DNA of 62,639 nt, filler included, from 8 parts of 8 records of this genome joined end to end with filler, not necessarily neighbours in it, one strand, 5' to 3'; shown: positions 3,979 to 51,787, counted from the first letter of the whole stretch. Program-made: numbers and translations. Notes: generated by a model not told the origin, from the letters alone.

Positions 3979-3980
3979 CC

Positions 3981-5417: not shown

Positions 5418-5420
5418 CCA

Positions 5421-5867
5421 TTACTCCGTAACACTGAACCGCAGGGTTTTAAAAATTTTACCTTCAGAATCCGTTATTTCCACCCGCCAGGGGCCCACAT
5501 CCATATTTCGAATATGTATTTTGCTGAAGCTTGACCACCTGGGCGGTTTGAGGGTCAGTTTCAACTTTTTATGGGGCTGATCCCGCTTGAACCAATTGTG
5601 GTAGACAACCGTTTTTTCAGGCACCGGATCAAACGCCGTGAAACAGATCACACTTCCAAATGTCACGCTGAAAATGATCGTCTCATTAACAGGTTCCAGG
5701 TCTTTCAGGCCCTCACACATGACCGCTTTCAGAAGGGTCAGTTGGGGTGGCTTTTCGGGGAGCGGGCCTTCCCTATCGCCATCTGCCCCGTGAATGTCCT
5801 GAGCGAAACAAAAAAAAATCGCAAAAAACAGGCATAAGGATAGGCTTGTATTCCATAGAGCTTTCAT
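5421..5867 (-). CDS. secreted DUF2914-like protein
   Basis: Signal peptide; VYHNW, RWSSFS, GPWRVEI..G..L..LRFSV pattern. Confidence 0.65.
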   Translation of the reverse strand: MKALWNTSLSLCLFFAIFFCFAQDIHGADGDREGPLPEKPPQLTLLKAVMCEGLKDLEPVNETIIFSVTFGSVICFTAFDPVPEKTVVYHNWFKRDQPHKKLKLTLKPPRWSSFSKIHIRNMDVGPWRVEITDSEGKIFKTLRFSVTE

Positions 5868-6232: not shown

Positions 6233-6332
6233 NNNNNNNNNNNNNNNNNNNNNNNNNNNNNNNNNNNNNNNNNNNNTTAATTAATTAANNNNNNNNNNNN
6301 NNNNNNNNNNNNNNNNNNNNNNNNNNNNNNNN
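6233..6332. other. artificial contig spacer
   Basis: N44-TTAATTAATTAA-N44; stops in all six frames. Confidence 0.98.
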
Positions 6333-13896: not shown

Positions 13897-13996
13897 NNNN
13901 NNNNNNNNNNNNNNNNNNNNNNNNNNNNNNNNNNNNNNNNTTAATTAATTAANNNNNNNNNNNNNNNNNNNNNNNNNNNNNNNNNNNNNNNNNNNN
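13897..13996. other. artificial contig spacer
   Basis: N44-TTAATTAATTAA-N44. Confidence 0.98.
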
Positions 13997-21433: not shown

Positions 21434-21533
21434 NNNNNNNNNNNNNNNNNNNNNNNNNNNNNNNNNNNNNNNNNNNNTTAATTAATTAANNNNNNNNNNN
21501 NNNNNNNNNNNNNNNNNNNNNNNNNNNNNNNNN
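21434..21533. other. artificial contig spacer
   Basis: N44-TTAATTAATTAA-N44. Confidence 0.98.
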
Positions 21534-21554
21534 CATTCTAAATTTCATTATTCC

Positions 21555-21562
21555 TACATTTG
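21555..21562 (+). promoter_or_regulatory. Bacteroidota-type -7 promoter element (TACATTTG) for the integrase
   Basis: Matches TAnnTTTG about 20 bp upstream of ATG 21585. Confidence 0.45.
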
Positions 21563-21584
21563 GCCTACCAAAAATGAGCAGGGA

Positions 21585-22727
21585 ATGAGGAAACCCAAAA
21601 TCACACTGGCCTATGATGAACACCGCAATCGCGAGGTGGTGAGTTTGTGTTTTGATAAGGATTTTGAGTTGATCAACAAAGTAAAAACCATTCCTGGTGC
21701 TGCCTGGAGCCAGACTAAAACTTATTGGTACATTTTTAAAGAAGATTTTAACCTGGGAAAGGTTTTCGATGTTTTATCGCCGGTGGCTTACCTGGATTAT
21801 TCGGCGATTAAGCAACCGGCATCCATACCTAAAAAAAACACCAGGAAACAAAAAAAGGAAAAACTAAAACCGATTCTATCAGGCAACGTTAAAAAAAAGA
21901 TAGATTCGTTCAGACTTTGGATGGAACAAAACCGTTACAGGCCAAACACCATTGACACATACATAGATGCACTCCGCACTTTTTTTGGGTTCTTCAACCA
22001 CAACCACCCTGCATCACTTACCAACGATGACCTGATCGAATTTAATAAATCATTCATTATCCAGCGAAACTATTCCCCTTCTTATCAAAATCAGGTGATA
22101 AATGCCATAAAACTCTTTTACACAAAAGAACTGAAGCATGCGATGATAATTGATGAAATTGAACGCCCGATAAGGAGAAAGCCCCTGCCCAAAGTCCTGG
22201 CCAAAGCAACCATTAAGGAAATGCTGGCAGGAATTTCAAACCTCAAACATAAAACAGCACTAACGCTGGTTTACGGACTTGGATTAAGACGTGGTGAAAT
22301 ACTAAGGATGGAGGTCAGCCATATTGATTTTAACCGCAAAACCGTAATGATAATAAACAGTAAGGGCGGAAACGACAGGCCCCTTCCCTTGAGTGATAAA
22401 CTCATCAGGATGATTAAGCAGCAGCTTACCGCCTATGAACCAATGAAATATGTTATAGAAGGGAAAGCCAAAGGCAAGCCCTACAGCCCGACAAGCCTAA
22501 GTAACATTTTTGAAAAAAACCTTACGAAGGTAATTGGAGAAAACAAATATAGCCTGCATTGCCTGCGGCATTCGTATGCAACACATTTGCTGGAGGCCGG
22601 GGTTGACATACGATACATACAAGAACTGCTTGGGCACAAGAGCTCACGCACTACCGAAATATACACACATGTAAGCATGAAAAATTTAAGTAACATCAAA
22701 AACCCAACAGATGATTTCGACATTTAA
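21585..22727 (+). CDS. tyrosine recombinase (integron-integrase-like, N-terminal SAM-like domain)
   Basis: YGLGLRRGE, SKGGNDR, HCLRHSYATHLLEAGVDIRYIQELLGH, TTEIYTHV: complete R-K-H-R-H-Y set. Confidence 0.92.
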   Translation: MRKPKITLAYDEHRNREVVSLCFDKDFELINKVKTIPGAAWSQTKTYWYIFKEDFNLGKVFDVLSPVAYLDYSAIKQPASIPKKNTRKQKKEKLKPILSGNVKKKIDSFRLWMEQNRYRPNTIDTYIDALRTFFGFFNHNHPASLTNDDLIEFNKSFIIQRNYSPSYQNQVINAIKLFYTKELKHAMIIDEIERPIRRKPLPKVLAKATIKEMLAGISNLKHKTALTLVYGLGLRRGEILRMEVSHIDFNRKTVMIINSKGGNDRPLPLSDKLIRMIKQQLTAYEPMKYVIEGKAKGKPYSPTSLSNIFEKNLTKVIGENKYSLHCLRHSYATHLLEAGVDIRYIQELLGHKSSRTTEIYTHVSMKNLSNIKNPTDDFDI

Positions 22728-22802
22728 AATAGTAACACCCAAATGTGTACATAGCATGCAGGATATTGAAATATTGTTGGGAAAAGTCGAACCTATAAAC
22801 AA

Positions 22803-23242
22803 GTTGTATTTAATTTAAAATTTACGCACATGAATAAGATTTGTTTAAGGGGAAAGGAGGGAAAAATTTGAAGTCAAGTCGATTTCGGAAATACCGTTCA
22901 AGTTACACTTGATAACGTGGTTACGTTAAAAACGACTTGGCAAAGGAATAGGATTTTGCTGACAAAGTCAAGGATTTTGGCAACAAATTTTTACCCTGGG
23001 ATAATAAGTATCCGTTTTCGTTACAAGCCATATCATTACGGTTTGATATAACCAATTAAGAAAACGATAAACAAATCACAATAAATGGACAAAAGGAGTA
23101 AATTTGAAACTACGTTTTTTTTAACAAGTAAAATGAATGAAAAACTAAACACAACACGCGATGATTTCGCATTGCCGCCGGTGGGGTGGTTTTAATGATA
23201 GAAAAAAGCGGTATGGCGGCAACGACGACATATCGCGATAAC
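22803..23242 (+). mobile_element. integron-like cassette 1, non-coding (440 bp)
   Basis: Begins GTTGTATTTAATTT (22803-22816); its near-complement AAACTAAACACAAC (23142-23155) precedes a hairpin; no ORF of 60 aa or more on either strand. Confidence 0.65.
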
Positions 23243-23257
23243 GTTACCTGCAAGGCT
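23142..23257 (+). repeat. attC-like recombination site (imperfect hairpin)
   Basis: ...CACAAC-ACGCGAT..TTGCCGCC-loop-GGCGGCAA..ATCGCG-ATAAC-GTT: AAC/GTT core ends with paired arms. Confidence 0.7.
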
Positions 23258-23403
23258 AAAAAAATGAACAGTGATAATTAAAGAGACAAAATGAAATTAT
23301 TAAAAAAGCTAACTCAAATGAGGTTGAATTTTACAATTAAAAACTTGGGATTTATGTTTTTGAATGTACAAAATGATCTGTCTTATAGATTTATTGAATT
23401 CAT

Positions 23404-23411
23404 TAAATTTG
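23404..23411 (+). promoter_or_regulatory. Bacteroidota-type -7 element (TAAATTTG) internal to cassette 2
   Basis: TAnnTTTG 13 bp upstream of the first TIR gene. Confidence 0.4.
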
Positions 23412-23424
23412 AAAAAATATTGAC

Positions 23425-23799
23425 ATGGAAAAGAAAAGAGTCTTCATAAGTTTTGACTTTGATTACGACAGAATTCTTAAAGAGTTTGTTATCGGTCAAT
23501 CTAAAAAGCCTGATGCACCATTTAAGGTGATTGATCATTCATTGAAAGAAGCAGCCCCTGAAAGAGAATGGGAGAAAAAGGCTTTAGCTGCTATAAAGAG
23601 ATCAGAAATAGTTTTGGTAATGGTTGGGCCAAATACCTATCGAGCTCCTGGCGTATTAAAAGAGGTGCAAATGGCCAGAGATGAGGATAGAAAGGTCGTG
23701 CAGGTTATTGGGTACAAAGATGGCAATTATAAACCTGTAACCAATGCGGGTAAACTTTATCGATGGAATTGGGAAAATTTAAAAAATTTATTAAGCTAA
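23425..23799 (+). CDS. thsB: TIR-domain protein (Thoeris ThsB-like)
   Basis: KRVFISFDFDYD start, LVMVGPNT, catalytic-position Glu in GVLKEV. Confidence 0.8.
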   Translation: MEKKRVFISFDFDYDRILKEFVIGQSKKPDAPFKVIDHSLKEAAPEREWEKKALAAIKRSEIVLVMVGPNTYRAPGVLKEVQMARDEDRKVVQVIGYKDGNYKPVTNAGKLYRWNWENLKNLLS

Positions 23800-23810
23800 T
23801 GATTTGCGAT

Positions 23811-25271
23811 ATGCCTATCTCAAGAAAAACACTTATTAAGGAATATGTAGAAGCAATCCAAAGGGAGGAAGCTGCAATATTTGCTGGAGCAGGCCTTTCA
23901 ATACCAGCTGGTTTTGTAAATTGGAAAGAGCTTTTAAGAGATATAGCGGAAAGCATAGAATTGGATGTTGAGGAAGAATACGACCTGATTGCTTTGGCCC
24001 AATATTATGAAAATGATAGGAACAGGGGAAGATTAAATCAGGTACTAATCGATGAATTTGCTAAATCTGCATCAATTACAAAGAACCATGAAATTTTGGC
24101 CTCTATGCCAATAAGATATTATTGGACAACGAACTTTGATAAAGTTATTGAAAAAGCCATTGAAAGAGCAGGTAAAACACCGGATGTAAAAATTTCATTG
24201 CAGAATTTAGCACTATCGAGATTTAAAGCCGATGCAGTAATATACAAGATGCATGGAGATGTATCGCAACCACATGAAGCGATTATTACAAAAGAAGATT
24301 TTGAAACTTTCGAGGAAAAGAAGTCACTCTTTTCACTAGCTCTCAGAGGTGATTTGGTTACTAAAACATTCCTTTTTCTTGGTTATAGCTTTAACGACCC
24401 TAATCTCTTTTACATACTTAGCAAAATAAGATCCATCCTGGATAAAAACAGCAGACCTCACTATTGCATTATGCGGAAAGTCAAAAGAGAAGACTTTGTT
24501 AAAGAAGAATTTGCTGAGGAAGAAATTGATAAAAAGTATGAATATGCTATAAAGCAGCAAAGACACAGAATTTGTGATTTGAAAAGATACAATATTTCTA
24601 CTCATTTGGTTGATGATTATAGTGAGATAACAGAAATATTGAAGGAAATTCAAACTCACGTTAAAAGAAAAACAATTTTTATATCAGGAGCAGCTACCAC
24701 ATTTGCTGATCCTTGGAATGAAGAAATTGCTTTAGGATTTGTTCAGAAACTCAGTTTCAGGTTATCAGAACTAGGCTATAAAATTGTTACGGGCTTTGGA
24801 TATGGAATTGGAAGTTCTGTGATTAATGGAGTTTTGGAGAATATTAAGAACGCAAAGTATCGAAATCTTGATGATCACTTGATTATGCGTCCATTTCCCC
24901 AAGTTAGTAAGAAGGATGAAGAGAAAAAGGAAAGAAATACTCTATATCGCAGAGAAATGCTTAAACATGCTGGCATCACAATATTCCTTTTTGGCAACAA
25001 GCATTCAGATAAAGGAATTATTGAGTCACCAGGAATGCAGGAGGAATTTGATATTGCCGTTGAATACGGTATTGTTCCATTACCAATTGGATGTACTGGT
25101 TGGAAGTCAAAAACACTATGGGAAATTGTAAATAGGAATTTTCCAGATTTTTATACTGATGATGCTAGTTTGTATGAAAAATACAAGTCTCTGAATATAA
25201 AGAAACCCGAAGTAAGTTTGCTTGTTATAAGAATTGTGGAAATAATCGAAGCCCTAAACAAAATTAATTGA
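23811..25271 (+). CDS. thsA: SIR2 + SLOG/STALD NADase effector (type I Thoeris ThsA)
   Basis: SIR2: GAGLS, TTNFD, KMHGD, FLGYSFND. SLOG: IFISGA, IVTGFGYGIG, RPFPQ, YRREML, EEFDIA. Start revised to ATG 23811. Confidence 0.88.
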   Translation: MPISRKTLIKEYVEAIQREEAAIFAGAGLSIPAGFVNWKELLRDIAESIELDVEEEYDLIALAQYYENDRNRGRLNQVLIDEFAKSASITKNHEILASMPIRYYWTTNFDKVIEKAIERAGKTPDVKISLQNLALSRFKADAVIYKMHGDVSQPHEAIITKEDFETFEEKKSLFSLALRGDLVTKTFLFLGYSFNDPNLFYILSKIRSILDKNSRPHYCIMRKVKREDFVKEEFAEEEIDKKYEYAIKQQRHRICDLKRYNISTHLVDDYSEITEILKEIQTHVKRKTIFISGAATTFADPWNEEIALGFVQKLSFRLSELGYKIVTGFGYGIGSSVINGVLENIKNAKYRNLDDHLIMRPFPQVSKKDEEKKERNTLYRREMLKHAGITIFLFGNKHSDKGIIESPGMQEEFDIAVEYGIVPLPIGCTGWKSKTLWEIVNRNFPDFYTDDASLYEKYKSLNIKKPEVSLLVIRIVEIIEALNKIN

Positions 25272-25272
25272 T

Positions 25273-25776
25273 ATGGCACGAAAAGTATTCTTTAGTTTTC
25301 ATTACAAACCGGACAACTGGCGCGCATCAAAAGTTAGAAATATTGGTGTAATAGAAGGGAACAGACCTGTGACAGACAATAAATGGGAAGAAATTACTGA
25401 TGGAGGTGATGATGCCATTGAGGATTGGATTGATGAAAATATGAGTGGAAAATCCTGTTGTGTTGTTCTTGTTGGCGAAAAAACCGCTGGCCGGAAATGG
25501 ATTAAATATGAAATAAAAAAAGCCTGGAATGATGGCAAAGGGGTATTAGGAATTTGTGTTCACAATATTACTGATCGAGATGATAAACAATCAAAAAAAG
25601 GCAGAAATCCATTTGAAGATTTCAGTGTTAAAAAGAATGGTGAAAAAGTTGGATTTGATAAAGTAATTAAGTTGTATGATCCTCCATATACAACTTCTAA
25701 AAATGTTTATATGCATATTAGTGAGAATATTGTGGATTGGATAGAAGAAGCAATTGAGATTAGGAATAGCTTTTAA
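25273..25776 (+). CDS. thsB: TIR-domain protein (Thoeris ThsB-like, DUF1863)
   Basis: MARKVFFSFHYKPDNWRA, VVLVGEKTAGRKWIKYEI, GKGVLGI. Confidence 0.88.
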   Translation: MARKVFFSFHYKPDNWRASKVRNIGVIEGNRPVTDNKWEEITDGGDDAIEDWIDENMSGKSCCVVLVGEKTAGRKWIKYEIKKAWNDGKGVLGICVHNITDRDDKQSKKGRNPFEDFSVKKNGEKVGFDKVIKLYDPPYTTSKNVYMHISENIVDWIEEAIEIRNSF

Positions 25777-25784
25777 ATTATATA

Positions 25785-27716
25785 ATGCTAATGGCACATT
25801 CATGTGAAGACGTAGTCTTGCTCTATTGCAAGGATGATATAATAAAGGTCGATATCATTAAGAAAGTATTCTATGAAAATGGTTTTACTGTTTTTGTAAG
25901 TGATCTTGATTCATCAAAGTCTAAGGATTCAATTCCCGTCCAAATAGCGTCCAAAATAGGGAATACAAATGCAGTTTTTATGATTGTGGGTCCAAAAACT
26001 GGAACTTTTCAGGTTATACTTGAACAGGATCTTGTGGTTGCTCAAATTAGTGATCCTAATAGAAATCTAGCTGTAGGAAATATTCTATTGATCGATGAAG
26101 AAAGCTACCCGAAAGATAAACTATCCTATTTTTTTAATTATAACAAATATCGACTTACGGGCGAATTAACTTTTGAAGAAAATAGGGAAATCTATTTATC
26201 AATTTTTCAATTGATACAAAAGACTAATAATACTTTTAATTTTGAAATTGCTAATAGTTGCCTTAATTCTATTCAATATGAATTACCAAAATCTTCATTA
26301 AATCAAAGGCACTACATACCAGGCCATAACAAAGTAATTCCCTATTTAAAAAAGACAGATGTAATTGATAGCGAAGAAAAGCTAACTTCATTTCTAAGGA
26401 CTCATACTAATGTTTTATTGCTAGTTGGCCCACAATTGTACGGTAAATCACTTTTAGTAAATAAAATAATTAATAACCTTAAAAAAGAATATTTTACCAA
26501 TAACAAAGAAAATGAGATTGAGTATAAATTTTATTCAGGAGAATTACCAGTAGAGAGATTTGCAACTATTCTTTATGAAGATTATGATAAGACAGAAGAG
26601 TTAGAGGGAGAAAAGAAAGAGAATTTAACTGAACCTTATAACTTATTTTTTTCTACTTCTGCCTATATTATTATGTCTGATATTATTAAAGCACTGAGTG
26701 AAGAAGACAAGAGAAAACTAAAGCAAAAAAATTATAGTTGGCTTGAACCTCTAGCATTGGTGCTTAAACAAAAGAATTTTATATCATTGATAATTGATGA
26801 TAAAAATAATAAATATTCAAGAAGTGAATCATATTTTTCAGTTATCTCTAAAATAATTAATAACCTTCTCATAGATGCAGGTATTTCTAATTATGAAAGA
26901 ATTTATGTGCTTGATATTGAAAACTTTAATAGTATTCTTGATAAATATAAGATTGATAAGGATAAGGTATTATCTAATTTTCTTTATCAAATCAAATTAG
27001 AAGAAATCTCTATATCGCAAAATCATCAATTAAACAATATACGCTTTTTAATAACGTCAAGAAACTTGCCAGGATTAAAAGAAAAAGATTTGATGGGCAA
27101 TAAACCTCCATTGATTAAACTGAAGGATTATAACCAGAAAGATTATATAGGCAACTTCATAGAAAACACTGTAATAAATAGCCTAATAAATTCAAATAAC
27201 CTGAATATCAATGACATTACAAGCGAAATCCAAAGTACAACAAATGGACACCCATGGTTTGTTTATAGATGGCTTAAATCATTTTTATTTTTAATCTCTA
27301 ATAAGAAAATTGTTAATATTGATAAGCTATTTTTGAATATCAAAGAGAATCACTTGTTCTGGTATTTAGAAGCCCCTTTTTCGAAAAGATATTTCCATGA
27401 CTTAAGTTTATTTAAAACCCGACAAGCTATAACTGAAAGCTCATTTTTAGTAGGAATTAAAAAGGCTTTTTACATTGAAGATTACGAGCATAATTGGATC
27501 CTAAATGAGAAATTATTCAACTGCTATAGGACAATAATCGGCAAACCTGGTAGTGACCCTGAACAAAAATATATTTTTGAACTAGAGAAGTTGGGATTAA
27601 TTTTTAAAACAAATAAAATGAAAGGAACATATGACTATTCGAACGAAATTATAAGACTGCAGTTTAACCCAGATTTGCTCAAAGATTATTTTAATATAGA
27701 ATTAGATGCTAAATAA
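25785..27716 (+). CDS. divergent TIR-like domain + STAND-like P-loop NTPase
   Basis: N-terminus DVVLLY..D..KV......GFTVFV...AVFMIVG....Q..LE (TIR-like); Walker A GPQLYGKS; LDIENF Walker-B-like; TNGHPW (STAND GxP). Confidence 0.6.
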   Translation: MLMAHSCEDVVLLYCKDDIIKVDIIKKVFYENGFTVFVSDLDSSKSKDSIPVQIASKIGNTNAVFMIVGPKTGTFQVILEQDLVVAQISDPNRNLAVGNILLIDEESYPKDKLSYFFNYNKYRLTGELTFEENREIYLSIFQLIQKTNNTFNFEIANSCLNSIQYELPKSSLNQRHYIPGHNKVIPYLKKTDVIDSEEKLTSFLRTHTNVLLLVGPQLYGKSLLVNKIINNLKKEYFTNNKENEIEYKFYSGELPVERFATILYEDYDKTEELEGEKKENLTEPYNLFFSTSAYIIMSDIIKALSEEDKRKLKQKNYSWLEPLALVLKQKNFISLIIDDKNNKYSRSESYFSVISKIINNLLIDAGISNYERIYVLDIENFNSILDKYKIDKDKVLSNFLYQIKLEEISISQNHQLNNIRFLITSRNLPGLKEKDLMGNKPPLIKLKDYNQKDYIGNFIENTVINSLINSNNLNINDITSEIQSTTNGHPWFVYRWLKSFLFLISNKKIVNIDKLFLNIKENHLFWYLEAPFSKRYFHDLSLFKTRQAITESSFLVGIKKAFYIEDYEHNWILNEKLFNCYRTIIGKPGSDPEQKYIFELEKLGLIFKTNKMKGTYDYSNEIIRLQFNPDLLKDYFNIELDAK

Positions 27717-30660
27717 TATCATTAAAAATAGAATAATAAATCTTCTGGACTCCTCAGCTAACTTTTTAGAAGGTATAGGAGTAATGGAAAAAGTAGATAT
27801 TAAGTACAGCAATGTTTATCTTTTAAGAAGAGATTTACTTGACTCAAAAGTAATGAAAGAGGTAATAGTTGTTCCTGATGATCTCATTCAAAATATAAGC
27901 GATTATGTTTCAAAGATCAAACAGGAAGATATTATACTAAAGGAATCGTCAATATTTTTTGTTGATTTATTTGGTGTTGATATTAATGATCCAATTAGAA
28001 TAGAGAAAAATATTAAGATATTAAATGCGAAAGAACTATGGAATCACCTATTTAAACTTTCTAAATACTTTGAAAATATTGAAACGGAGATTGGGATTGA
28101 AAGATTAAATTTAAAGTACCTCAATCAGTTGGCTGAAGAGATAATTGAATTAAATTACATTGGTGAGTCTGCAACAAGAGAAATCAATACTAATATTTCT
28201 GAATACTTATCAAATTGGGCTAAAGGAGATAATAATCAAAACGGCATATTTATTTTGGGTGAGCGTGGAGCTGGGAAAACATGGGCAATGAAAAAATTTG
28301 TAATTGATCAAAATTCTCTTCACTTAGAAAATGAATGGATAAATCCACCTGCAGTTTATGTAAACCTAAAGAACTTTGGAGAATTCCTTTATAATAATCA
28401 AGGTATTAAAAAGTCATTAGCATATTATATTTTTAAACATTATAATATTAGAAGTTATTCAGAATTGTATTTCATTAATTCGGCTATCTTGAATGGTCAT
28501 TTTATATTATTACTAGATGGACTCGATGAATTGATTAATACATATAATACAGAAGATGTATTATTACAGTATCATACGATTGCAAATTACTTATCCGCCA
28601 GTAGTAGGGTAATATTCTCAATGAGAAGCAGTAAGCTGCCACAATATAAATTTTTGCTAAATCATTTTACCAGACGAGAACCTAAAGAAGGATTGAAAAG
28701 AGAAAAAAGTAAACAATTCTTCTTACCTAATATTACATTTATTAAGCTTCTTCCACTTATCAATAATGAAATAAAAGACCTTTTAAAGAATAATTTGGCA
28801 CTTCTAAATAATCAGATTAATACAGAATCGAAAATATTAAATATTTTATCTAGTAAAAATTTCTTAGACACCCAATTAAAAGACTTAGCCAAAATTCCCA
28901 CTTGTGCTCAAAAAATAATAGATTATATTGACACTGGAATTGGAGATAATTTACGGGTTTTTGAACTGTCATTATTTTATCCATTATTAGTTTATAATAT
29001 TGAATCCAAAAGAGCGCAAACTGAGTATTTTATTAATGAAGAAATTAAAAGAATTGATCTACCCGAAAGAATTTCAATAATAAATCATATTGCCTGGCGA
29101 TTAATTGAAATTGGTGAAAAAGAATTTGATCCGGATATTATTGGCTATTCCTTTCTTGAGGTTCCTATAGAAGAATTTGAAGAGATATTAAATGACATCC
29201 GTTCACAAACAATTTTTGAATTAAGTGAAACAAGTAATCGAATTAGATTCAGGCTTTGTTCTATACAATACTATTTTGCAGCTAGATACATATTTTCTAA
29301 TTTGATTGATGCTAAAGATATAAATCTACAAGAAGGAATCAAACTCTTGGGCAGATACAACCTTACGATAAATGATAGAGTAAATATTCTTAACTTCTTA
29401 ATTTTATTTTTTGAAAAAGGTATATTAAAACCATGGATCGTAGATGAAGTGTATTTTAATATAGAGGATTTTAAGATTAATAGCAAAAAATACACTGCTA
29501 ATGTAGCTAATGATTTTAAAAATGAATTAATGAATTTTGCAAAAAATCCTGATATGACTTTTTCCCCTCATGCTAGGTTTTTGAAAACTAATATGATTAA
29601 AATTGCAAGAGATATTACAACAGTGAAAAATGACTTTATTAAGGAGTTCGATAATCAGTTAAAGACATGGGATAATATTGATATTCCGATCATGGATTAT
29701 CAGGGTGTATTAATAAAGAATGAGTCATTATCTTTTATTATTAGTTGCAGAGAAGTTACTCGCAATGATTTTAAATCCTTTCTGGAAAGCAATTATATAC
29801 CTAAACTAATATGTAAGAATAGTGATTCGGAATTTCCCAAATTGATAAAATTTGATTATCGCGAATTGAGAGATATTAAAAGCCATCCATTATCATGGTC
29901 CCATATTCATGGAAAAATTAAAGGTGGTCCTGATAATTTGTTACTAAAGTATTTTACTAATGATTATCACTTGTTTAAATGGATAAATGATGAATATAAT
30001 CCTGAAACTAATGATTACCCGGTTGTATGGATCAGTGGTTTTATAGCAACAATTTATTTAAATTGGTTAACATTAATAGAGCAAATTAAGAATAATAATA
30101 TTAAAATCACTTCACAAAATGATTTAGACAATTATTTAGATTCTAATAACATAGATTTCTTTTATAATATCGGTCTCAAGGAGATTCAGAAACCTTATTT
30201 AACAATAAATAAAAATAGTTTAGGATATAGACTTCCCACAAAAGAAGAATGGATGTTTGCAGCTAGAGCAAATGATAAAGGGTTTTATCCATGGGATAAA
30301 TACTTGAACAATAATTTACCAGAAGGTATTCAAAAAGAAAAGGTGAAGGAAATGGGAAGATTATTAAAAAGATATTTATTAGAGCCAACAACAGAAACAA
30401 AAAGTGCCATGTCAAGCCGTTGCAATGATTTTGGTTTATTTGATATGATTGGAAATGTAAGAGAATGGGCTGATGTTACTGATGATGAAAAAAATATCAA
30501 TCTTGACTATGTTGAAGGTAGTGTTATGGGAGCAACATTTGCGCTTGGAGAAGAATCTTTTTTATTCAATAACAAAGGAAGTAAATTACCATTTATCAAT
30601 ACAAATTTAGATGTAGGCTTTAGATGGGCACGGTCATTTTTGATTTCAAAAATTTATTAA
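27706..30660 (+). CDS. NACHT/STAND NTPase with C-terminal FGE-sulfatase (SUMF1/FGS) domain
   Basis: GERGAGKT, LLLDGLDE; C-terminal EVT..DF..FL, PVVWIS, YRLPTKEEW.FAAR, NDFGLFDMIGNVREW, VGFRWAR. Confidence 0.8.
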   Translation: MLNNIIKNRIINLLDSSANFLEGIGVMEKVDIKYSNVYLLRRDLLDSKVMKEVIVVPDDLIQNISDYVSKIKQEDIILKESSIFFVDLFGVDINDPIRIEKNIKILNAKELWNHLFKLSKYFENIETEIGIERLNLKYLNQLAEEIIELNYIGESATREINTNISEYLSNWAKGDNNQNGIFILGERGAGKTWAMKKFVIDQNSLHLENEWINPPAVYVNLKNFGEFLYNNQGIKKSLAYYIFKHYNIRSYSELYFINSAILNGHFILLLDGLDELINTYNTEDVLLQYHTIANYLSASSRVIFSMRSSKLPQYKFLLNHFTRREPKEGLKREKSKQFFLPNITFIKLLPLINNEIKDLLKNNLALLNNQINTESKILNILSSKNFLDTQLKDLAKIPTCAQKIIDYIDTGIGDNLRVFELSLFYPLLVYNIESKRAQTEYFINEEIKRIDLPERISIINHIAWRLIEIGEKEFDPDIIGYSFLEVPIEEFEEILNDIRSQTIFELSETSNRIRFRLCSIQYYFAARYIFSNLIDAKDINLQEGIKLLGRYNLTINDRVNILNFLILFFEKGILKPWIVDEVYFNIEDFKINSKKYTANVANDFKNELMNFAKNPDMTFSPHARFLKTNMIKIARDITTVKNDFIKEFDNQLKTWDNIDIPIMDYQGVLIKNESLSFIISCREVTRNDFKSFLESNYIPKLICKNSDSEFPKLIKFDYRELRDIKSHPLSWSHIHGKIKGGPDNLLLKYFTNDYHLFKWINDEYNPETNDYPVVWISGFIATIYLNWLTLIEQIKNNNIKITSQNDLDNYLDSNNIDFFYNIGLKEIQKPYLTINKNSLGYRLPTKEEWMFAARANDKGFYPWDKYLNNNLPEGIQKEKVKEMGRLLKRYLLEPTTETKSAMSSRCNDFGLFDMIGNVREWADVTDDEKNINLDYVEGSVMGATFALGEESFLFNNKGSKLPFINTNLDVGFRWARSFLISKIY

Positions 30661-30666
30661 AGGAAT

Positions 30667-32178
30667 ATGAATACATTAACACAAACTGAAGGCTATCTAT
30701 TCTTAGCCATTTTTGCAATCGTAATGATTGGATTAACCTGGCTTGTTTCAAGAAACAAAGCCTGGACAGGAAGTCAGATCGGTTTTTTAAAAGCAGGTTC
30801 AAATGTTCCCTGGGGAATTGGGGCATTTAGTATTGCCGCATCATGGATATGGGCACCTGCCTTATTTGTGAGTGTTCAGAAATCTTATGAACTGGGGCTT
30901 GCTGGTATGTTCTGGTTTACTATTCCAAATATTTTGGCATTGGTAATTTTTGCGTTTTTAGCACCAAAAATCAGAAAAAGGCTTCCCGGTGGCTACACAT
31001 TACCGGATTGGATCAGGTACAGATTTAAAGATGAAAGAATTCATAAGATTTATCTCTTCATTTATTTTTGGTACCAGATAATGGCAATCACGGTACAGGT
31101 CTTTGTAGGTGGACTACTTCTATCATTCTTAACAGGTATTTCGCTTAATATGGTGATGATATTATTAACTGCAATTGGACTATCTTATGCTCTAATCTCT
31201 GGTCTAAGGGCCTCTGTTGTAACTGATTTCTTACAGATGATCATGATATTCGGCGTTGGCATCATTATAATTCCATGGGCGGCCGCTGAAGGTGGAGGAT
31301 GGGAGGCCATTGCAAAAGGGTTTGGAGGATTACAGCATGTAAAAGGCATTTTTGATCCTGGAGTTGTATACTCGTTTGGTATTGTAACAACTATCGGGTT
31401 AATTGCGGGTTCAATTTCAGATCAGCAATACTGGCAAAGAAGTTTTGCAATTAAAAAGAATCAACTGGTAAAATCATTTGTTTGGGGAGGTATATTCTTT
31501 GGTATTGTTCCACTTGCATTATCAATATTAGGTTTCATGGGAGCCAATCCAGATTTGGGGGTTGCAGTGCCAAAAGATGTAAATCTACCAATGATTGGAG
31601 TAGCAGTGGTTGGAAAACTTTTACCAACCTGGGCAACAGTATTGTTTGTTATAATGCTAATGAGTGGTTTAAGTTCCACACTCGATTCGGGTTTCGCGGC
31701 AGGAGCTTCTTTGTGGGCGATTGACACGGTGCGATTATCAAAAAAGGAAAAGGAAATATTGAGGAAAGAACGATTAGAAAAAGAATTAACTAGCGAAGAA
31801 ATTATAATAAGGGAAGAACTCGATAAAAAAACCCCCAGAAGAGCAAGGCAAGCGATGATTGGATTAGCCATAATCGGTTTAATAGTAGCCTTTATTGTTG
31901 AATATGTACCGAATTTTACGTTGGATATTCTTTGGTGGATTTTTAATGCTATTGCATCTATGGCTGTTGTGCCAACAATACTAGGCCTGTTTTGGGATAA
32001 GTTATCAGTAAAAGGAGTTCTTCTAGGCTTTATTGGTTCATTCTTAGGAATAGTTGGCTTTATTTGGGGAAGTGCCATAGCAAATACGAATCTCATTGTA
32101 TTCTCAGCGATCTTTATCATTGCTATCAGTTTAATTATGAACTTGTCTTTTCCAGGTAAAGAAAATTTTACTGACTAA
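30667..32178 (+). CDS. sodium:solute symporter family protein (DUR3-like)
   Basis: Many TM helices; SIAASWIWAPALF, YALISGLRASVVTD, DQQYWQR, SGLSSTLDS. Confidence 0.85.
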   Translation: MNTLTQTEGYLFLAIFAIVMIGLTWLVSRNKAWTGSQIGFLKAGSNVPWGIGAFSIAASWIWAPALFVSVQKSYELGLAGMFWFTIPNILALVIFAFLAPKIRKRLPGGYTLPDWIRYRFKDERIHKIYLFIYFWYQIMAITVQVFVGGLLLSFLTGISLNMVMILLTAIGLSYALISGLRASVVTDFLQMIMIFGVGIIIIPWAAAEGGGWEAIAKGFGGLQHVKGIFDPGVVYSFGIVTTIGLIAGSISDQQYWQRSFAIKKNQLVKSFVWGGIFFGIVPLALSILGFMGANPDLGVAVPKDVNLPMIGVAVVGKLLPTWATVLFVIMLMSGLSSTLDSGFAAGASLWAIDTVRLSKKEKEILRKERLEKELTSEEIIIREELDKKTPRRARQAMIGLAIIGLIVAFIVEYVPNFTLDILWWIFNAIASMAVVPTILGLFWDKLSVKGVLLGFIGSFLGIVGFIWGSAIANTNLIVFSAIFIIAISLIMNLSFPGKENFTD

Positions 32179-32227
32179 TAGGTCCTGATGTTTTTAATTG
32201 GACAATCTGAATAAAGCCCAGCAGGTA

Positions 32228-32253
32228 ATCGAGTAGACGGCCGTGAGCCCTAA
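32228..32253 (-). mobile_element. 3' terminus (domain VI) of a group II intron inserted antisense into the attC-like site
   Basis: Minus strand reads TTAGGGCTCACGGCCGTCTACTCGAT/TACCTGC; CTACTCGAT is a typical IIC intron end and replaces the expected AC of the inverse core; only 26 bp visible. Confidence 0.6.
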
Positions 32254-32353
32254 NNNNNNNNNNNNNNNNNNNNNNNNNNNNNNNNNNNNNNNNNNNNTTA
32301 ATTAATTAANNNNNNNNNNNNNNNNNNNNNNNNNNNNNNNNNNNNNNNNNNNN
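32254..32353. other. artificial contig spacer
   Basis: N44-TTAATTAATTAA-N44. Confidence 0.98.
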
Positions 32354-34289: not shown

Positions 34290-36374
34290 ATGTTTGGTGA
34301 GAAATTGGGCAATATTTATGATGAAGTTAAAGATAACCATTTGATAATGAATCCTGCAGAAGAGGAGTTTTTGAAACCTTTTTTAAATGGATTTGATATT
34401 ACTTGGGCAAAGATTAACCGCGCTTACAATACAGATCTTTCATTGTATATCATTAAACCTGCTCGGCATATGGAAGATGGATATGGATTTTCACGTGAAA
34501 TATTATTGGTTTACTCGCAATACCCTAACATGGAACCACGGACCATCCAAGCAGCAGAATCTGTTTTGTCATCGTATCCCGTAAAAGGTCGTGTTGAAAA
34601 TTTCAACTTTTTCTTAGTTTCAGAAGACAAAAATGTCAGAGATTGGATTAACAAATACATATCAGAGCATCCAGAATCCCGCATTATTGTTGCTTTTTCA
34701 GCAGAAGAACTTAGGGCAAACCAGGGAGATGGATATTATATCCGCAAAATAATTGACCAATATTTATATGGACGAGATTTGTTTGATTTTCGATTACCTT
34801 TAGAAAGTGATTACTATTTTTTTGGTCGAAAAGACATTGTTGCAAGCATCATTGCTTCAATATCAAAAAACGAAAACAAAGGGCTTTTTGGCCTAAGAAA
34901 AACTGGAAAAACATCCATATTATACAAAATTGAGCGATACGTAAAAAACAATAATATGGGATATTTTCTATATTACGATTGTAAAAGTCCAGCAATAAGA
35001 AAGCTCAGATGGAATCAATTACTTGAAAAGGTTTGTAGAGATATTTCTAATAAATTTAACATCCCACTAAACAAAAACTTTGATGAAATTGGCATCGTAG
35101 AAACATTCGGGGATTTAATAGAGCAAAGCAAAGAAAGAGGAAAAGTAATATTAGTATTCGATGAAATTGAGTATATTTCTCCAAAAGCAATTGAAGATAC
35201 TCATTGGGAAAAAGATTTTATTGATTTTTGGCAAACTTTTTGGGCAGTCCAAAGTCGACATAGAAATGTATCCGCAATTATCGTTGGTGTAAATCCATAT
35301 CCTCTAGAAATTGATGTAATAGATGGAATCCAAAATCCTCTTTTTGGAATTGTATCTAATACATATTTGAGAGGACTAGAATTTGAGGATATGAAGTTGA
35401 TGATTAAAACCCTTGGTAAAAAAATGGGCTTGAGATTTAATCCAAAAGCTTTAGAATACTTATATGACTGCTACGGAGGACATCCACTATTAACACGAAT
35501 TGCTTGTAGCTTTATTAACCAAAACATTACAGGAGATAAGCCATTTGAAGTTACGTATGAGTTTTTGATGAAAATGAAGGATGATTTAGACTCCCATTTA
35601 TTATTCTACTATGGACACGTAGTATATGAGCTGAAACAATTTTATAAAGATGAATATGACTTGCTAGAATTACTTGCAAGTGGACAAAAAATAAAATTTA
35701 TTGCTAATTCCAAACATCCACGAAGTACGAAGCACCTAGTAGAATATGGACTAATTAATTTTGATGATAAAGGTGTACCTTCATTTTCAATGCCTGTTAT
35801 TGGTAGATACGTTGGATTGGAATATATGAGACGTGAGAACAGAAAAACAATATATAAGCTGGTAGAAGAGAATAAAAGGAATTCCTGGCTACAAAACCGC
35901 ATTAAATCAATTATTTCTGATATGAAATTTTTGGAGCAGATTATTCACAAAAAAAATATGCCTTCATTATATGGGGTTAATTCGTTCCCAGAAGCAGACG
36001 AGTTATATCAATTAAGTGTGGTAACTGACAAAGCAAGTTACGGCGATTTTATAAATACTTGCAATCGTTGCTTTGTAGAATCAATTGAAAATTATGGAAA
36101 ATCACATGGCCATAGCAAATATTTTTGGAATGATGTTAAAAATAATTATCCATCATTATGGGATGCATTCTATAGAATAAAGTTATACAGACACGCATTT
36201 GTACATAGAGATTTGAAAGAAAAACCTAGTGACGATTTCTATGACTTCTTGAAAAAAGATTTAGAAGGACAAAAACCTGAAAATGTACCAGAATTGAATT
36301 TTTATATTCAGCAATGTGTACTTGATTCACTATTGGCAGGAATACAAATAGAAGTAAATAGATATTCTTCATAA
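34290..36374 (+). CDS. STAND-like ATPase with C-terminal HEPN-like RxxxxH motif
   Basis: FFGRKD, GLRKTGKTS, VFDEIE, GGHPLL; RHAFVH in the helical C-terminus; AT-rich relative to neighbours. Confidence 0.7.
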   Translation: MFGEKLGNIYDEVKDNHLIMNPAEEEFLKPFLNGFDITWAKINRAYNTDLSLYIIKPARHMEDGYGFSREILLVYSQYPNMEPRTIQAAESVLSSYPVKGRVENFNFFLVSEDKNVRDWINKYISEHPESRIIVAFSAEELRANQGDGYYIRKIIDQYLYGRDLFDFRLPLESDYYFFGRKDIVASIIASISKNENKGLFGLRKTGKTSILYKIERYVKNNNMGYFLYYDCKSPAIRKLRWNQLLEKVCRDISNKFNIPLNKNFDEIGIVETFGDLIEQSKERGKVILVFDEIEYISPKAIEDTHWEKDFIDFWQTFWAVQSRHRNVSAIIVGVNPYPLEIDVIDGIQNPLFGIVSNTYLRGLEFEDMKLMIKTLGKKMGLRFNPKALEYLYDCYGGHPLLTRIACSFINQNITGDKPFEVTYEFLMKMKDDLDSHLLFYYGHVVYELKQFYKDEYDLLELLASGQKIKFIANSKHPRSTKHLVEYGLINFDDKGVPSFSMPVIGRYVGLEYMRRENRKTIYKLVEENKRNSWLQNRIKSIISDMKFLEQIIHKKNMPSLYGVNSFPEADELYQLSVVTDKASYGDFINTCNRCFVESIENYGKSHGHSKYFWNDVKNNYPSLWDAFYRIKLYRHAFVHRDLKEKPSDDFYDFLKKDLEGQKPENVPELNFYIQQCVLDSLLAGIQIEVNRYSS

Positions 36375-38501: not shown

Positions 38502-38601
38502 NNNNNNNNNNNNNNNNNNNNNNNNNNNNNNNNNNNNNNNNNNNNTTAATTAATTAANNNNNNNNNNNNNNNNNNNNNNNNNNNNNNNNNNNNNNNNNNN
38601 N
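38502..38601. other. artificial contig spacer
   Basis: N44-TTAATTAATTAA-N44. Confidence 0.98.
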
Positions 38602-40509: not shown

Positions 40510-43500
40510 TCAGCTTTTCTTCCGGATAAGCGTTTTATACAGCGCCGTGACATTGGGGCTTACCGGGCAATCCATATCCTGTGCGGCATTCCTGTAAGTT
40601 TTATATGTCTGTTGCACCTGGGTAAAATTGCCTTGCTCTGAATGGAAAACCATGATTTTTTTTGTTGCGGTTTCATTAAAAGAATCAATGCTGAATATTT
40701 TCCCGTTGCAGTGATGGGCATTTTCCATGTCGCCTTGTTTTTCGTAAATATCAGCCATCTCTTTGAGCATTATCAGAAAATCCGAATTAAATTTATCTCT
40801 TATGTGGTTGCACCACTCCTCATATTGATCTTCTTCCAGAAATGATCCCACATAAAAGGATAGGGCCAAACGGTACGAATCAAGCGCCTTTTCCGGGTTG
40901 TCCCTGTCGGCCCTTGCCAGGATGAGCGTATTTGAAAACTGTTCTGAATCAATTTGGACCCTGTTGTCATGATGCAGCCTGTACGTGTCTTTTTTACGTT
41001 CAATATATGTGGAGGCTCTTTTGGGGGGAATCCCGGGTTCCAGGGTTTTGCGAAGGGCGCTCATGGCCATGTGAAAGCGGCCGGCTGTTTTTTTCGGGTC
41101 AGCCTCGGGCCACAGCATCTCGATCAATACTTCCCGGGGAATAAAACCTTTGGTCCGGTTGGCGGCAAGATACTTGAAAATCATGAGCGCCTTTGAACTG
41201 GTCCAGCTGGCCTGTGGGATCTCTTTGCCATCAATCATCAGCTTGAACCGGCCAAGCAATTTGATTCTCAAGGCCGGACGCTTTTTTGTCATATCTGTTT
41301 TAATAATGGATCCCAGGTAGGCATCCGCTTTTTTGTTCAATATTATCTGTTTTGAATAACCGGACTGCAAAAGAGAGTTGATCCACAGGGCTTCTTTTTC
41401 AACAAACCGGTGGTAGCCTCTTTTTTCAGATAACGCCAAACCTTGTGACAGGAACCTGTACGCCTTTTGCAACCGACCCAATTTAAAACAGGCTTGTGCC
41501 GCCATCAGATGGTTGCTGAACAGATAGAACTCCACGCCTTCAAATTTTTCTTTTGCACGTTCAAGCCAGTCCAGGGCGTTTGGGTAATTTCCCTCAAGGA
41601 TATACAACCGGGCAAGACTGTTTTCCAACAGGCCTTCAGTGGACACCAGTCCGTAACCCTTGATGGTGTCCATGGCTTTTTCCAGTCTTTGCCGGGCTGA
41701 CTGCATATCCCCCTGGGCCAAATCTATTTTATGCCGCATATCCCAGGCGTGGGCAAGGCCCCAGCGATTTCCCATGTCCTCGAATATCTCGACACAGTTC
41801 TGGGTCAGTTCAAGGGCCTGGTCCGTTTTTTCAAGGGCAAGAGCGTTGTTGGCCCACATGAAATAGATCCATCCCCGGGTGCTGTCAAACAAAGAGGTTT
41901 GATCACAAATCGCAATGGCCTTTTTTCCATATTCCATTCCCTTTTCATATTCTCCCCGCATAAAACAGTGGGCGCTGAACTGGTAATTCAGCAGGGGTAA
42001 AAACGGATCAGCACCAATATCGAGAACCTTTTTCATTATTTTTCGGCTAAGCTGATAGGCCTGGTTAAATCTGCCTTTAATAAATAATGTGTATGTATAG
42101 GTAATATTAACGGATATTTCAGCTATCTTAAATTTAAAACCGGAAAGCCCCCGGTAAATTTTCCGTCCGGTCTTATGGTAGTGCTCCGTGGTTTCAAATT
42201 CGCATAAAACCGAGGAGAGCAGTATCAGGTAGGTCAGTGCGGTAATGTGGTTAAAGGAACCTTCCCGGACTTCTCCAACCACCTGTTCCATAAGCAGTTT
42301 GGCTTCTTTAATATACCCGGTGGAATAGTATTGGGTGCCCAGCTCCAGCAGGCATTTGGTCATCCTGTCTCCGGATTTTTGTTTTTTAAACAGCAGGTGA
42401 GCCCGGGTAAGGTTCTCCATGGCCTGCTGGGGCTTCCCGTAATGGGAAAAAAGCCTGGCCTGGGCCAGCAGTGATTCGGGATTCTCTTCAATAACGGATC
42501 GGGGTAGTTTATTTAAGCATTGGCCCAGGAAGTTAACTTTTCCTTCCAGTAAAAATTTCTTTTCATGGGTTCCGATGAGGCGAACGGCGTCATCAAAAGC
42601 CTGGCCTTCTAAAAAGTGGTGGATGGCCTGAAAGAGATCTTCTGTTTCGAGTTCCTGGGCAATTCGGCGGTGCAATTGATTGATTTCAGGCCTGGAAAAC
42701 GTTTGATTAAGCTGGCCAATTAAAAAATCCCGGAAAAGATGATGCAGGTGAAAACAAGACCTTGAGTCATCCGTGGGAAAAATCATTAAATGGTCGTCAA
42801 CCATTTTATTGATAATGGCGGCGGCATTATCTTCATGGAATATTTTGCTGCAGCGGTTTACGTTGATCTCGGCAAGAAGGGCTGCTTTCATCATAAATGT
42901 TCTGAAATGAGGCGGCTGCAGATCAAATATATTTTCTTTGAAATATGAAAATATATGCCCCGGGTGTTGCACGAATGCGTCGATTGCGGCCTTGATCTCT
43001 CCAGGCGCTTTTTTCTCCAGTGAATAGCGAAGCAGCACCAGGCCTGCTGCCCACCCCCCTGTGCCGGCAAAGATATCCTTTGCCGACGTTGGGGTGGGCA
43101 ATTTGTGATCTGAGAAAAAAAGTTCGATCTCCCCGGGCGTAAAAGCCAGATCCGCTTCATCGATTTCAAGAAGCATTCCTTCCGCCCGCAGTTTTGACAA
43201 ACCAAACACCGGGTTTTTCCGGCCGATCAGGATCAGGTGAATATGATCCGGCAGGCGGTCGACAATGAATTGTATTGCTTGATTGATGGCAAGGCTCTCT
43301 CCAACCAGGTGATAGTCATCCAGTACGATAACAGTGGGCTGTGTTACCGTATTTTCAAGAAAGGCGAGCCATTCCAGGAGGGTCTCTGTGTGTTTTGTCA
43401 GCCCGGTTTTTGAAACCGTATGCCGGATATCCATTTCACCAGCACCGGAACCGTGCTGTTTAAGGGCCGCATACAGATAGGCAACAAACACGGCAAAATC

Positions 43501-45229: not shown

Positions 45230-45329
45230 NNNNNNNNNNNNNNNNNNNNNNNNNNNNNNNNNNNNNNNNNNNNTTAATTAATTAANNNNNNNNNNNNNNN
45301 NNNNNNNNNNNNNNNNNNNNNNNNNNNNN
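45230..45329. other. artificial contig spacer
   Basis: N44-TTAATTAATTAA-N44. Confidence 0.98.
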
Positions 45330-51687: not shown

Positions 51688-51787
51688 NNNNNNNNNNNNN
51701 NNNNNNNNNNNNNNNNNNNNNNNNNNNNNNNTTAATTAATTAANNNNNNNNNNNNNNNNNNNNNNNNNNNNNNNNNNNNNNNNNNNN
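51688..51787. other. artificial contig spacer
   Basis: N44-TTAATTAATTAA-N44. Confidence 0.98.

Follow-up and report, generated by a model that had tools for sequence, protein, structure and literature searches.

We analysed a stretch of DNA of 62,639 nt, referred to here as the window, and focus on six consecutive genes (genes 1-6) carried by a single contig within it (21534-32253, 10,720 nt). Comparison of these genes with their relatives leads us to favour a reading in which they form two adjoining and separable immune units downstream of a tyrosine recombinase. Unit 1 (genes 1-3, 23425-25776) is, from its domain content, an ordinary canonical type I Thoeris system. Unit 2 (genes 4-6, 25785-32178) is probably a conserved three-gene conflict module, independent of Thoeris, that would combine a sensor and an executor with a transporter of the SSF family. 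The six genes are as follows.

Gene 1, 23425 to 23799, + strand: thsB-short, a 124-aa ThsB-type TIR protein (Pfam ThsB_TIR)
Gene 2, 23799 to 25271, + strand (open reading frame, ORF, opening at 23763, 502 aa): thsA, a SIR2 plus SLOG (STALD) effector (Pfam, PADLOC)
Gene 3, 25273 to 25776, + strand: thsB, a 167-aa ThsB TIR protein (Pfam, PADLOC)
Gene 4, 25785 to 27716, + strand: a putative STAND-type NTPase of 643 aa, with a weakly TIR-like N-terminal region of about 170 aa (family motifs, profile)
Gene 5, 27706 to 30660, + strand: a 984-aa NACHT NTPase with a C-terminal FGE-sulfatase domain (FGS, C-type-lectin fold) (Pfam)
Gene 6, 30667 to 32178, + strand: a 503-aa SSF-family (LeuT-fold) transporter (Pfam SSF)

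An earlier interpretation of this DNA, made without database searches (the sequence-only reading), had described six co-oriented, closely packed genes, and our annotation places six ORFs on the + strand at exactly the same coordinates. The first junction, between genes 1 and 2, is a 37-nt overlap if the ORFs are taken as listed. An alternative in-frame ATG at 23799 would give gene 2 a TAATG stop/start overlap with gene 1; this overlap, together with a PADLOC ThsA match that begins at residue 19 of the ORF, makes 23799 the probable thsA start. Genes 2 and 3 are separated by 1 nt, genes 3 and 4 by 8 nt and genes 5 and 6 by 6 nt, and genes 4 and 5 overlap by 11 nt.

The evidence for a three-gene module comes from its recurrence. 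We scanned metagenome contigs with a 31-sequence transporter alignment, which gave 487 stretches, and kept the best 80 (loci L016-L095). Upstream genes for NACHT-FGS proteins were scored by tblastn and with a profile of gene 5 and seven syntenic homologues. Such a gene lies directly upstream of the transporter gene, on the same strand, in 15 of the 80 loci; 54 lack one, and 11 have less than 600 nt of upstream sequence and are uninformative. The linked fraction among informative loci is 15/69, and the linked loci carry 14 different record prefixes. As a control, SSF genes of other subfamilies (32-41% identical, viral contigs, 1.12 Mb) were examined at 80 loci, and no NACHT-FGS gene was found; the control is imperfect in that these loci were drawn from a different collection than the test loci.

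The linked loci are concentrated in one part of a quick IQ-TREE tree of the transporters, which omits a single locus whose transporter ORF falls short of 430 aa. Of the 23 rows on the window's side, 14 are linked (window included), 5 are unlinked and 4 are uninformative, so that 13 of 18 informative rows are linked when the window itself is set aside. In the window's own five-row clade (support 100) all five rows are linked, and on the other side of the tree the association is found in 2 of 57 rows. When the 669 neighbouring ORFs were clustered, just two neighbours were recurrent, the NACHT-FGS protein (14 loci) and a TrmB-type regulator, whose 25 loci all fall outside the window's side of the tree; no other cluster was represented in more than three loci.

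The genes of the module are also closely spaced elsewhere, with stop/start overlaps or gaps of at most 34 nt in 9 of the 15 linked loci, including 4-nt overlaps between gene 5 and the transporter gene in L017, L028 and L095. In L016, the window's closest relative (transporter 85% identical), an IS1595-family transposase gene (4078-5010, - strand) stands between the NACHT-FGS gene and the transporter gene. Across the same loci the proteins are conserved to very different degrees: identity is 69-85% for the transporter and 22-26% for gene 5, and gene 4 gives local matches alone.

The position occupied by gene 4 is filled in most of these loci. Seven of the nine loci with a complete gene 5 have an abutting or overlapping ORF of 436-807 aa (L016, in which this ORF is cut by the contig end, and L017, L018, L019, L028, L074 and L095). 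The proteins of L017, L018 and L019 are mutually homologous (E values of 4.6e-10 to 3.5e-29). A profile of the gene 4 family, with gene 4 included, matches those of L018 (6.4e-18) and L017 (8.2e-12), and gene 4 itself matches the L018 protein by BLASTP (1.4e-5). The proteins of L028, L074 and L095 form a second group, which hhalign relates to the gene 4 family with 80% probability (E 1.4e-5), the alignment including a T-x-G-x-P-W motif. The N-termini at this position differ between loci. That of L028 is a Metallophos domain (8.7e-15), those of L018 and L017 give sub-threshold TIR and caspase matches, respectively, and no domain was detected in those of L019, L074 and L095.

The two remaining loci, L029 and L089, have no large upstream gene. 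Instead, gene 5 carries its own N-terminal caspase domain together with pentapeptide repeats, and the upstream ORF is only 163-197 aa long, that of L029 being weakly EACC1-like (E 3.4e-3). Either gene 5 has the effector fused to it or gene 4 bears it, never both, and this pattern is the strongest argument for gene 4 as the executing arm of gene 5. The sequence-only reading had inferred that the transporter is a functional component and had named co-occurrence of genes 4-6 with each other as a check; this part of it is borne out, gene 5 with gene 6, and mostly genes 4, 5 and 6 together, being found in the 15 metagenomic loci, which represent divergent lineages.

The C-terminal part of gene 5 matches the Pfam FGE-sulfatase family (3.1e-17, residues 673-923), and its NACHT match of 23.4 bits falls below the 26.7 cut-off. 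All nine complete syntenic homologues show both Pfam domains, six of them above the NACHT cut-off (28.5-44.3 bits). Among eight family members the residues G188, G190 and K191 (GxGKT), D271, G272, D274 and E275 (DGxDE) and R307 are invariant. The NACHT-FGS call of the sequence-only reading is upheld by the FGE-sulfatase match, the invariant Walker A, Walker B and sensor arginine residues and the homologues above the NACHT cut-off. The family profile of the FGS region also matches TvpA (2y3c), a variable protein of a diversity-generating retroelement (DGR), at 1.6e-21, as well as FGE structures. Foldseek, run on an AlphaFold2 (AF2) model of gene 5 with a pLDDT of 55, returned NLRP3, NOD2, NLRC4 and Avs4 as top matches, and also NAIP.

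Residues 1-165 of gene 5 have no Pfam match even at an E value of 10, and their language-model (Atlas) neighbours score just 0.82-0.87, for example Mrr_cat at 0.87. No position between 2 and 170 is invariant among the eight sequences, and the N-terminal 160 residues have a mean identity to the window residue of 0.20-0.28, although the AF2 model gives this domain a pLDDT of 70-80. Since the Walker A and B motifs and the sensor arginine are intact and the N-terminus lacks invariant residues, an adaptor role for this domain fits better than an enzymatic one. The best-conserved stretch of gene 5 is the C-terminal end of the FGS domain, where identity to the window residue averages 0.56 over residues 961-984; such conservation would suit recognition of a constant ligand or partner. 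Neither an ORF for a reverse transcriptase nor a template-like repeat of the sequence coding for the end of FGS was found on the 10.7-kb contig, although a DGR may lie elsewhere in the genome.

Searches in other collections found few relatives of gene 5. A scan of genome contigs gave one weak match to the FGE domain, residues 1-665 gave just four P-loop-level matches (E of about 5e-4) in 401 Bacteroidota genomes, and tblastn against plasmids gave domain-level matches alone for gene 5 and none for gene 6. An index-based homologue search returned none for genes 4 and 5, an index that was probably swamped by K/N/I-rich sequences.

At default thresholds, gene 4 matches nothing in Pfam or PADLOC. 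We call it a STAND-type NTPase on the strength of its family. A HMMER search of 1.84 billion representatives found just nine relatives (best 3.3e-11, 27% identity), which have the C-terminal two-thirds in common and differ at the N-terminus, where three carry TIR_2, one HD-CE and one Metallophos. They give weak nSTAND3, NB-ARC or NACHT signals. The family motifs are a GPQxxGK[ST] P-loop, an acidic Walker B pair, TSR/TTR and TNG[HY]PWF, and GK[ST] is kept in all nine aligned family rows, the Walker A lysine of gene 4 being K221. Gene 4 itself has sub-threshold Pfam matches to NB-ARC, NPHP3_N and AAA_16, and the family profile matches CED-4 at an E value of 1.4e-3. Foldseek on the AF2 model of gene 4 (mean pLDDT 55) listed archaeal AAA+ proteins, CED-4, the helper NLRs NRC2/3/4, MalT and ORC. 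With models of genes 4 and 5 at a mean pLDDT of about 55, these Foldseek lists are consistent with STAND and NACHT assignments and are not proof of them.

The N-terminal domain of gene 4 is a separate question. It matches TIR_2 with an E value of 0.024 (15.6 bits, cut-off 28), and its Atlas neighbours are TIR_2+AAA_35 clusters at 0.96; the AF2 model gives this region a pLDDT below 50. The sequence-only reading had called gene 4 a TIR-STAND protein. The STAND part of that call is strengthened by the motifs and the CED-4 profile match, and the third TIR-like domain that it named is weak, hhalign being unsupportive. Pfam detected no DNA-binding output domain in either STAND protein. On the next contig, an ORF of 694 aa (34290-36374) has sub-threshold AAA_35 and AAA_14 matches; it was considered as a gene 4 paralogue and rejected, BLASTP similarity being absent.

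Gene 6 matches Pfam SSF at 6.4e-25 (88.3 bits, cut-off 22.8) over residues 42-456, and TIGR00813 with 126.7 bits, below the 184 cut-off. Its relatives comprise 757 matches, of which the 120 listed are 54-85% identical and most are single-member clusters; named records among the matches listed include Bacteroidales, Kordia, Marinimicrobia, Deltaproteobacteria and Alphaproteobacteria, the transporter of the cultivable Kordia antarctica being 80% identical. More than 100 columns of the subfamily alignment are invariant. Gene 6 has no match at E 1e-30 in the 401 sampled Bacteroidota genomes, a blank that shows little.

Transporters of this subfamily contain an inserted charged stretch of about 26-28 aa, which in the window lies within residues of about 352-398 (31720-31860, LSKKEKEILRKERLEKEL...). 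None of the 12 SSF genes sampled from other subfamilies has the insertion. Within the subfamily it occurs in members linked to the module and in members linked to the TrmB-type regulator (the loci checked include L018, L028, L034 and L065), and it is missing from L095. We considered this loop as a module-specific docking site and rejected the idea: it occurs in TrmB-linked transporters too and is absent from the module-linked L095. Prediction of a complex between the transporter and the FGS region (residues 640-984) gave an ipSAE of 0.00 which, run as it was without controls, speaks neither for nor against contact.

Genes of metabolism also occur at several transporter loci, module loci among them. 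An aspartate/ornithine carbamoyltransferase-like gene lies directly downstream of the transporter gene in L023 (4540-5601), L028 (11517-12515) and L066, overlapping the end of the transporter gene in L028, and genes for pyridoxal-phosphate (PLP)-dependent enzymes flank the module in L074 and L089.

From the recurrence of gene order and domains we infer an immune function, a division of labour and any physical contact among the three proteins, which might work as follows. Gene 5 would be the sensor, its lectin-fold FGS domain binding a trigger and its NACHT NTPase oligomerising. It would then activate gene 4, a second STAND NTPase that has an exchangeable death or effector domain and would act as executor in the manner of a helper NLR. 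The N-terminal domain of gene 4 would do the damage, directed at NAD+ or nucleotides if it is truly TIR-like; the effectors predicted at this position are weakly TIR-like in the window and calcineurin-like phosphoesterase or caspase-like elsewhere. The SSF transporter, as the most conserved component, would be the constant membrane partner of the sensor.

We give an even chance to a role of the transporter on the input side, either as the protein monitored by the FGS domain or as the importer of a solute that the FGS domain binds. This role is favoured because the transporter stays whatever the effector, the fused caspase included, because the C-terminal end of the FGS domain is the best-conserved part of gene 5, and because the subfamily elsewhere adjoins a TrmB-type ligand-sensing regulator. 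A role as membrane effector is possible and less likely, and the remaining probability falls to a transporter with no direct role. The fullest version of the proposal, a mobile immune module in which a sensor NLR and a helper-like STAND protein work through a dedicated LeuT-fold transporter of Na+/solute type, as guarded bait or as a conduit for a danger signal, is tentative.

A number of observations weigh against our reading of Unit 2. PADLOC reports nothing for genes 4-6. Most informative transporter loci (54/69) lack NACHT-FGS and the TrmB-type regulator is the partner in 25, so the subfamily probably also works alone and remains an ordinary transporter; five rows on the window's own side of the tree are without STAND genes. 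Metabolic neighbours (ornithine carbamoyltransferase (OTCase)-like, PLP-dependent enzyme, NUDIX, nucleotidyl transferase) occur at some module loci. The comparison loci are all metagenomic contigs, which may be incomplete, the tree is a quick and not a careful one, and the AF2 models of genes 4 and 5 are poor, with a mean pLDDT of 55. The TIR-like domain of gene 4 is only a lead, being sub-threshold and finding no support when aligned by hhalign with the TIR domains of its relatives and with ThsB proteins. Finally, the gaps of 1-8 nt would allow co-transcription of thsB and gene 4, and cross-talk between the units may occur through the TIR-like domain of gene 4.

Among the alternatives, the one that survives best is a solute-sensing module without immune function, in which the transporter imports a metabolite, the FGS domain binds it and the STAND proteins switch dormancy, cell death or metabolism. 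The pairing of the sister-clade transporter with a TrmB-type regulator, a member of a sugar-sensing family, in 25 loci fits a nutrient transporter. The more than 100 invariant columns of the subfamily and the OTCase-like, PLP-enzyme and NUDIX neighbours also speak for this alternative. The C-terminus of the FGS domain is conserved and not hypervariable, and STAND NTPases include regulators such as MalT, one of the Foldseek matches of the gene 4 model. However, swappable TIR, caspase, calcineurin-like and HD-type N-termini mark conflict systems, according to the portions of Kaur et al. (PMC8195603) on which we draw, and genes 4 and 5 diverge very fast beside a conserved transporter. The module also stands next to Thoeris and a recombinase in the window and next to TIR genes in L018, and neither STAND protein has a detected DNA-binding output domain. 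On balance we regard this explanation as unlikely.

Less probable is a chance juxtaposition, that is, a defence island of independent single-gene systems (gene 4 and gene 5) with an unrelated housekeeping transporter at the contig end. A recombinase at the start of the contig and the many transporter loci without STAND genes (54 of 69 informative) would fit such an island. Against this, the same order recurs in 15 loci despite gene 5 being only 22-26% identical, stop and start codons of gene 5 and the transporter gene overlap in L017, L028 and L095, the 80 control SSF loci have no NACHT-FGS gene, and the effector sits either on gene 5, as a fusion, or on gene 4, and never on both. The lack of a transporter match at E 1e-30 in 401 sampled Bacteroidota genomes also speaks against this alternative, a blank that by itself proves little.

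The separability of this module from Unit 1 bears on the last alternative. Genes 1-3 were identified as Thoeris in the sequence-only reading (TIR, SIR2/SLOG, TIR), and the profiles agree. Gene 2 matches Pfam SIR2_2 (6.5e-31, 107.8 bits, cut-off 24.5) and STALD (2.3e-66), and PADLOC ThsA1 at 1.4e-186 over residues 19-500. Gene 3 matches Pfam ThsB_TIR (1e-26) and PADLOC ThsB1 (1.3e-71), and gene 1 matches ThsB_TIR with 27.1 bits, above the 21.2 cut-off, and PADLOC ThsB with just 1.2e-3. In domain content and order genes 1-3 do not differ in any essential from type I Thoeris, of which forms with more than one thsB are known. In this system, ThsB responds to phage by producing a cyclic ADPR-isomer signal, upon which ThsA depletes NAD+. 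Unit 1 would accordingly consist of two ThsB TIR sensors flanking a ThsA SIR2-SLOG NADase.

ThsA matches were found in 4 of the 401 sampled Bacteroidota genomes, 3 of them strong, and we examined about 3-10 kb on each side of these three. In L009 and L010, ThsA is adjoined by a gene-3-like ThsB of 65-67% identity. In L011, a full-length homologue of gene 1 (56% identity over all 124 residues) lies directly upstream of ThsA. Thus, although the first ThsB of the window is unusually short, it is kept at full length beside ThsA in L011, and gene 1 is a real, conserved ThsB partner.

Homologues of genes 4, 5 and 6 are absent from the examined flanks of all three ThsA loci. Conversely, tblastn found neither ThsA nor a gene-3-type ThsB (ThsB2) in any of the 80 transporter loci, which include six with at least 860 nt upstream of gene 4 (L017, L018, L019, L028, L074 and L095). 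With ThsA absent from the module loci and the module absent from the ThsA loci, the module and Thoeris travel independently. This does not agree with the proposal of the sequence-only reading that genes 4-6 extend the Thoeris operon, for which it had named co-occurrence with thsAB as a check, nor with its composite system in which STAND sensors feed ThsA. In L018, the region upstream of the module (3607-5443) carries a copy of gene 1 (73% identical), a 135-aa ORF without assigned family and a gene for a 332-aa tandem-TIR protein, and no ThsA; these TIR genes may belong to another TIR-based system or may encode additional TIR partners for the module. In the window, the adjacency of Thoeris and the module looks like defence-island packing, possibly with co-transcription.

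An extended Thoeris, in which the six genes form a single system, with STAND proteins that make or gate a cyclic ADPR-type signal for ThsA and with the transporter included, is the least probable of the three alternatives: co-oriented genes with gaps of at most 8 nt or overlaps make co-transcription plausible, the GC content at third codon positions (GC3) is uniformly low in all six (0.22-0.32), the gene 4 N-terminus is weakly TIR-like and the L018 module is preceded by the short ThsB-like TIR and tandem-TIR genes, but the 0/80 and 0/3 counts stand against it, L018 has its TIR genes without ThsA, the effector at the gene 4 position is elsewhere a phosphoesterase or caspase-like, so that the module is independent of TIR signalling, and the cassette ends that had seemed to enclose the six genes are spacers.

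These ends belong to the layout of the window, which consists of eight contigs joined by spacers of the form N44-TTAATTAATTAA-N44, so that adjacency across a spacer is meaningless. The spacers, and the one further feature annotated on the studied contig, are the following.

6233 to 6332, 13897 to 13996, 21434 to 21533, 32254 to 32353, 38502 to 38601, 45230 to 45329 and 51688 to 51787: assembly spacers, non-biological
21434 to 21533, no strand: assembly spacer at the left end of the studied contig, non-biological
32254 to 32353, no strand: assembly spacer at the right end of the studied contig, non-biological
21585 to 22727, + strand: tyrosine recombinase/integrase, 380 aa (NCBIfam, XerA/integron-integrase-like)

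The spacer (44 N, TTAATTAATTAA and 44 N) is present seven times in the window, against an expectation of 0.02, and its core is an all-frame stop sequence. The 100-nt arms at 21434-21533 and 32254-32353, read in the sequence-only reading as matching cassette ends framing the six genes, are two of the seven copies. We therefore also rejected an integron or gene cassette with repeated recombination sites at its ends, the ends being runs of N around TTAATTAATTAA. The GC content of the eight contigs ranges from 0.325 to 0.603, and they may come from more than one organism. Within the studied contig, a mosaic origin inferred from GC content was dropped, as GC3 is uniformly low in the six genes.

One public DNA run contains an identical 10,720-nt Logan contig of flat depth; it is probably the source of the sequence and so is not independent support. 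No RNA run was listed as containing the contig. The ends of the contig (21534-21563 and 32224-32253) match assembly-graph pieces of 31-33 nt with depths of 650 and 633, about 1.8 times the contig depth of 363, and assembly therefore halted at short repeats or branch points. The recombinase matches its NCBIfam model at 9e-54 with 182.8 bits, under the 220-bit cut-off, and its terminal region contains an HxLRHSYATHLLE...Y motif. It is separated from gene 1 by an AT-rich gap of 697 nt (22728-23424, GC 0.32) with no ORF of at least 60 aa and no Rfam match. An Rfam search of the whole contig likewise found no match, promoter and terminator scans of the contig gave the same result as shuffled sequence, and an exact look-up in a collection of 15 billion proteins found 0 of 8 window proteins. 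Elsewhere in the window, the last contig (52163-60707) has a type I restriction-modification set (HsdR 52163-54598, HsdM 54622-56403, HsdS 56403-58358) followed by an AAA_21/AAA_15 ATPase gene (59106-60707), and a 1066-aa protein encoded at 40510-43710 (- strand), which combines a MalT-like TPR region with a BTAD domain, resembles SARP/AfsR-type regulators.

Thoeris and proteins of the STAND-FGS or bNACHT type are already known. STAND NTPase-FGS proteins are placed among counter-invader systems in the computational work of Kaur et al. (2021, eLife, PMC8195603), which, in the portions used here, describes NACHT, MNS or nSTAND1 cores, frequent linkage of STAND NTPase-FGS systems to DGRs, and N-terminal effector-associated domains (EADs) or effectors of the TIR, DrHyd, calcineurin, caspase, trypsin, kinase and FHA types. 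The available text of Kibby et al. (bioRxiv 10.1101/2022.07.19.500537) reports that bNACHT proteins are antiphage, treats FGS as a sensor of antigen-receptor type and notes that bacterial NACHT genes are seldom in conserved operons. FGE-sulfatase sensors are listed among defence STAND proteins in the consulted part of a 2026 survey (PMC13581612), and DGR-targeted STAND-lectin proteins are the subject of that of Doré et al. (bioRxiv 10.1101/2023.09.22.558884). In its layout, a central NACHT and a C-terminal lectin-fold FGS sensor, gene 5 conforms to what defines the STAND NTPase-FGS class, and the same effector repertoire (TIR, calcineurin-like, caspase) is found around it. It differs in that the effector is on a separate second STAND protein, gene 4, rather than at the NACHT-FGS N-terminus or on a small EAD-tagged partner, in that a conserved SSF transporter gene follows, and in that the contig carries no DGR and gene 5 is best conserved, rather than variable, at the C-terminal end of FGS.

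Two further systems invite comparison. The EACC1-caspase system (Kaur et al. 2020, PMC7159879, in the portions available) shares the concept of a conserved, constant membrane component paired with a fast-evolving multidomain partner, and L029 has its weakly EACC1-like ORF upstream of a caspase-NACHT-pentapeptide-FGS protein. In that system, as far as the same portions describe it, the membrane component is a single-TM EACC1 protein encoded 5' of its partner, whereas here it is a multi-pass SSF transporter encoded 3'. Plant sensor/helper NLR pairs, such as those involving NRC, are alike in logic alone, with two adjacent STAND proteins that appear to share out the roles of sensor and executor; we infer the pairing here from synteny and the effector pattern, and there is no evidence of shared descent beyond the STAND superfamily.

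Supplementary neighbourhood tables aside, the word symporter is absent from the available text of PMC8195603, PMC7159879, PMC13581612 and the bNACHT and Doré preprints, and transporter is mentioned at most once in each, in an unrelated passage in PMC8195603 and PMC13581612. Full-text literature searches found no paper joining NACHT, STAND or FGS to a symporter or transporter, although supplementary tables may list one. An operon that combines a NACHT-FGS gene and a second, effector-bearing STAND gene with a conserved SSF transporter gene thus appears undescribed.

If the link between these genes is functional, it bears on how two STAND proteins can share the tasks of sensing and executing, in the way of plant sensor/helper NLRs, and on what FGS lectin-fold sensors recognise. 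A constant transporter beside a fast-evolving sensor offers a concrete handle for tests: it could be the target under guard, import the ligand or act as an effector at the membrane. If our proposal is true, gene 6 would be the first secondary transporter to serve as a constant component of an NLR-type defence, and genes 4 and 5 would be a prokaryotic counterpart of sensor/helper NLR pairs.

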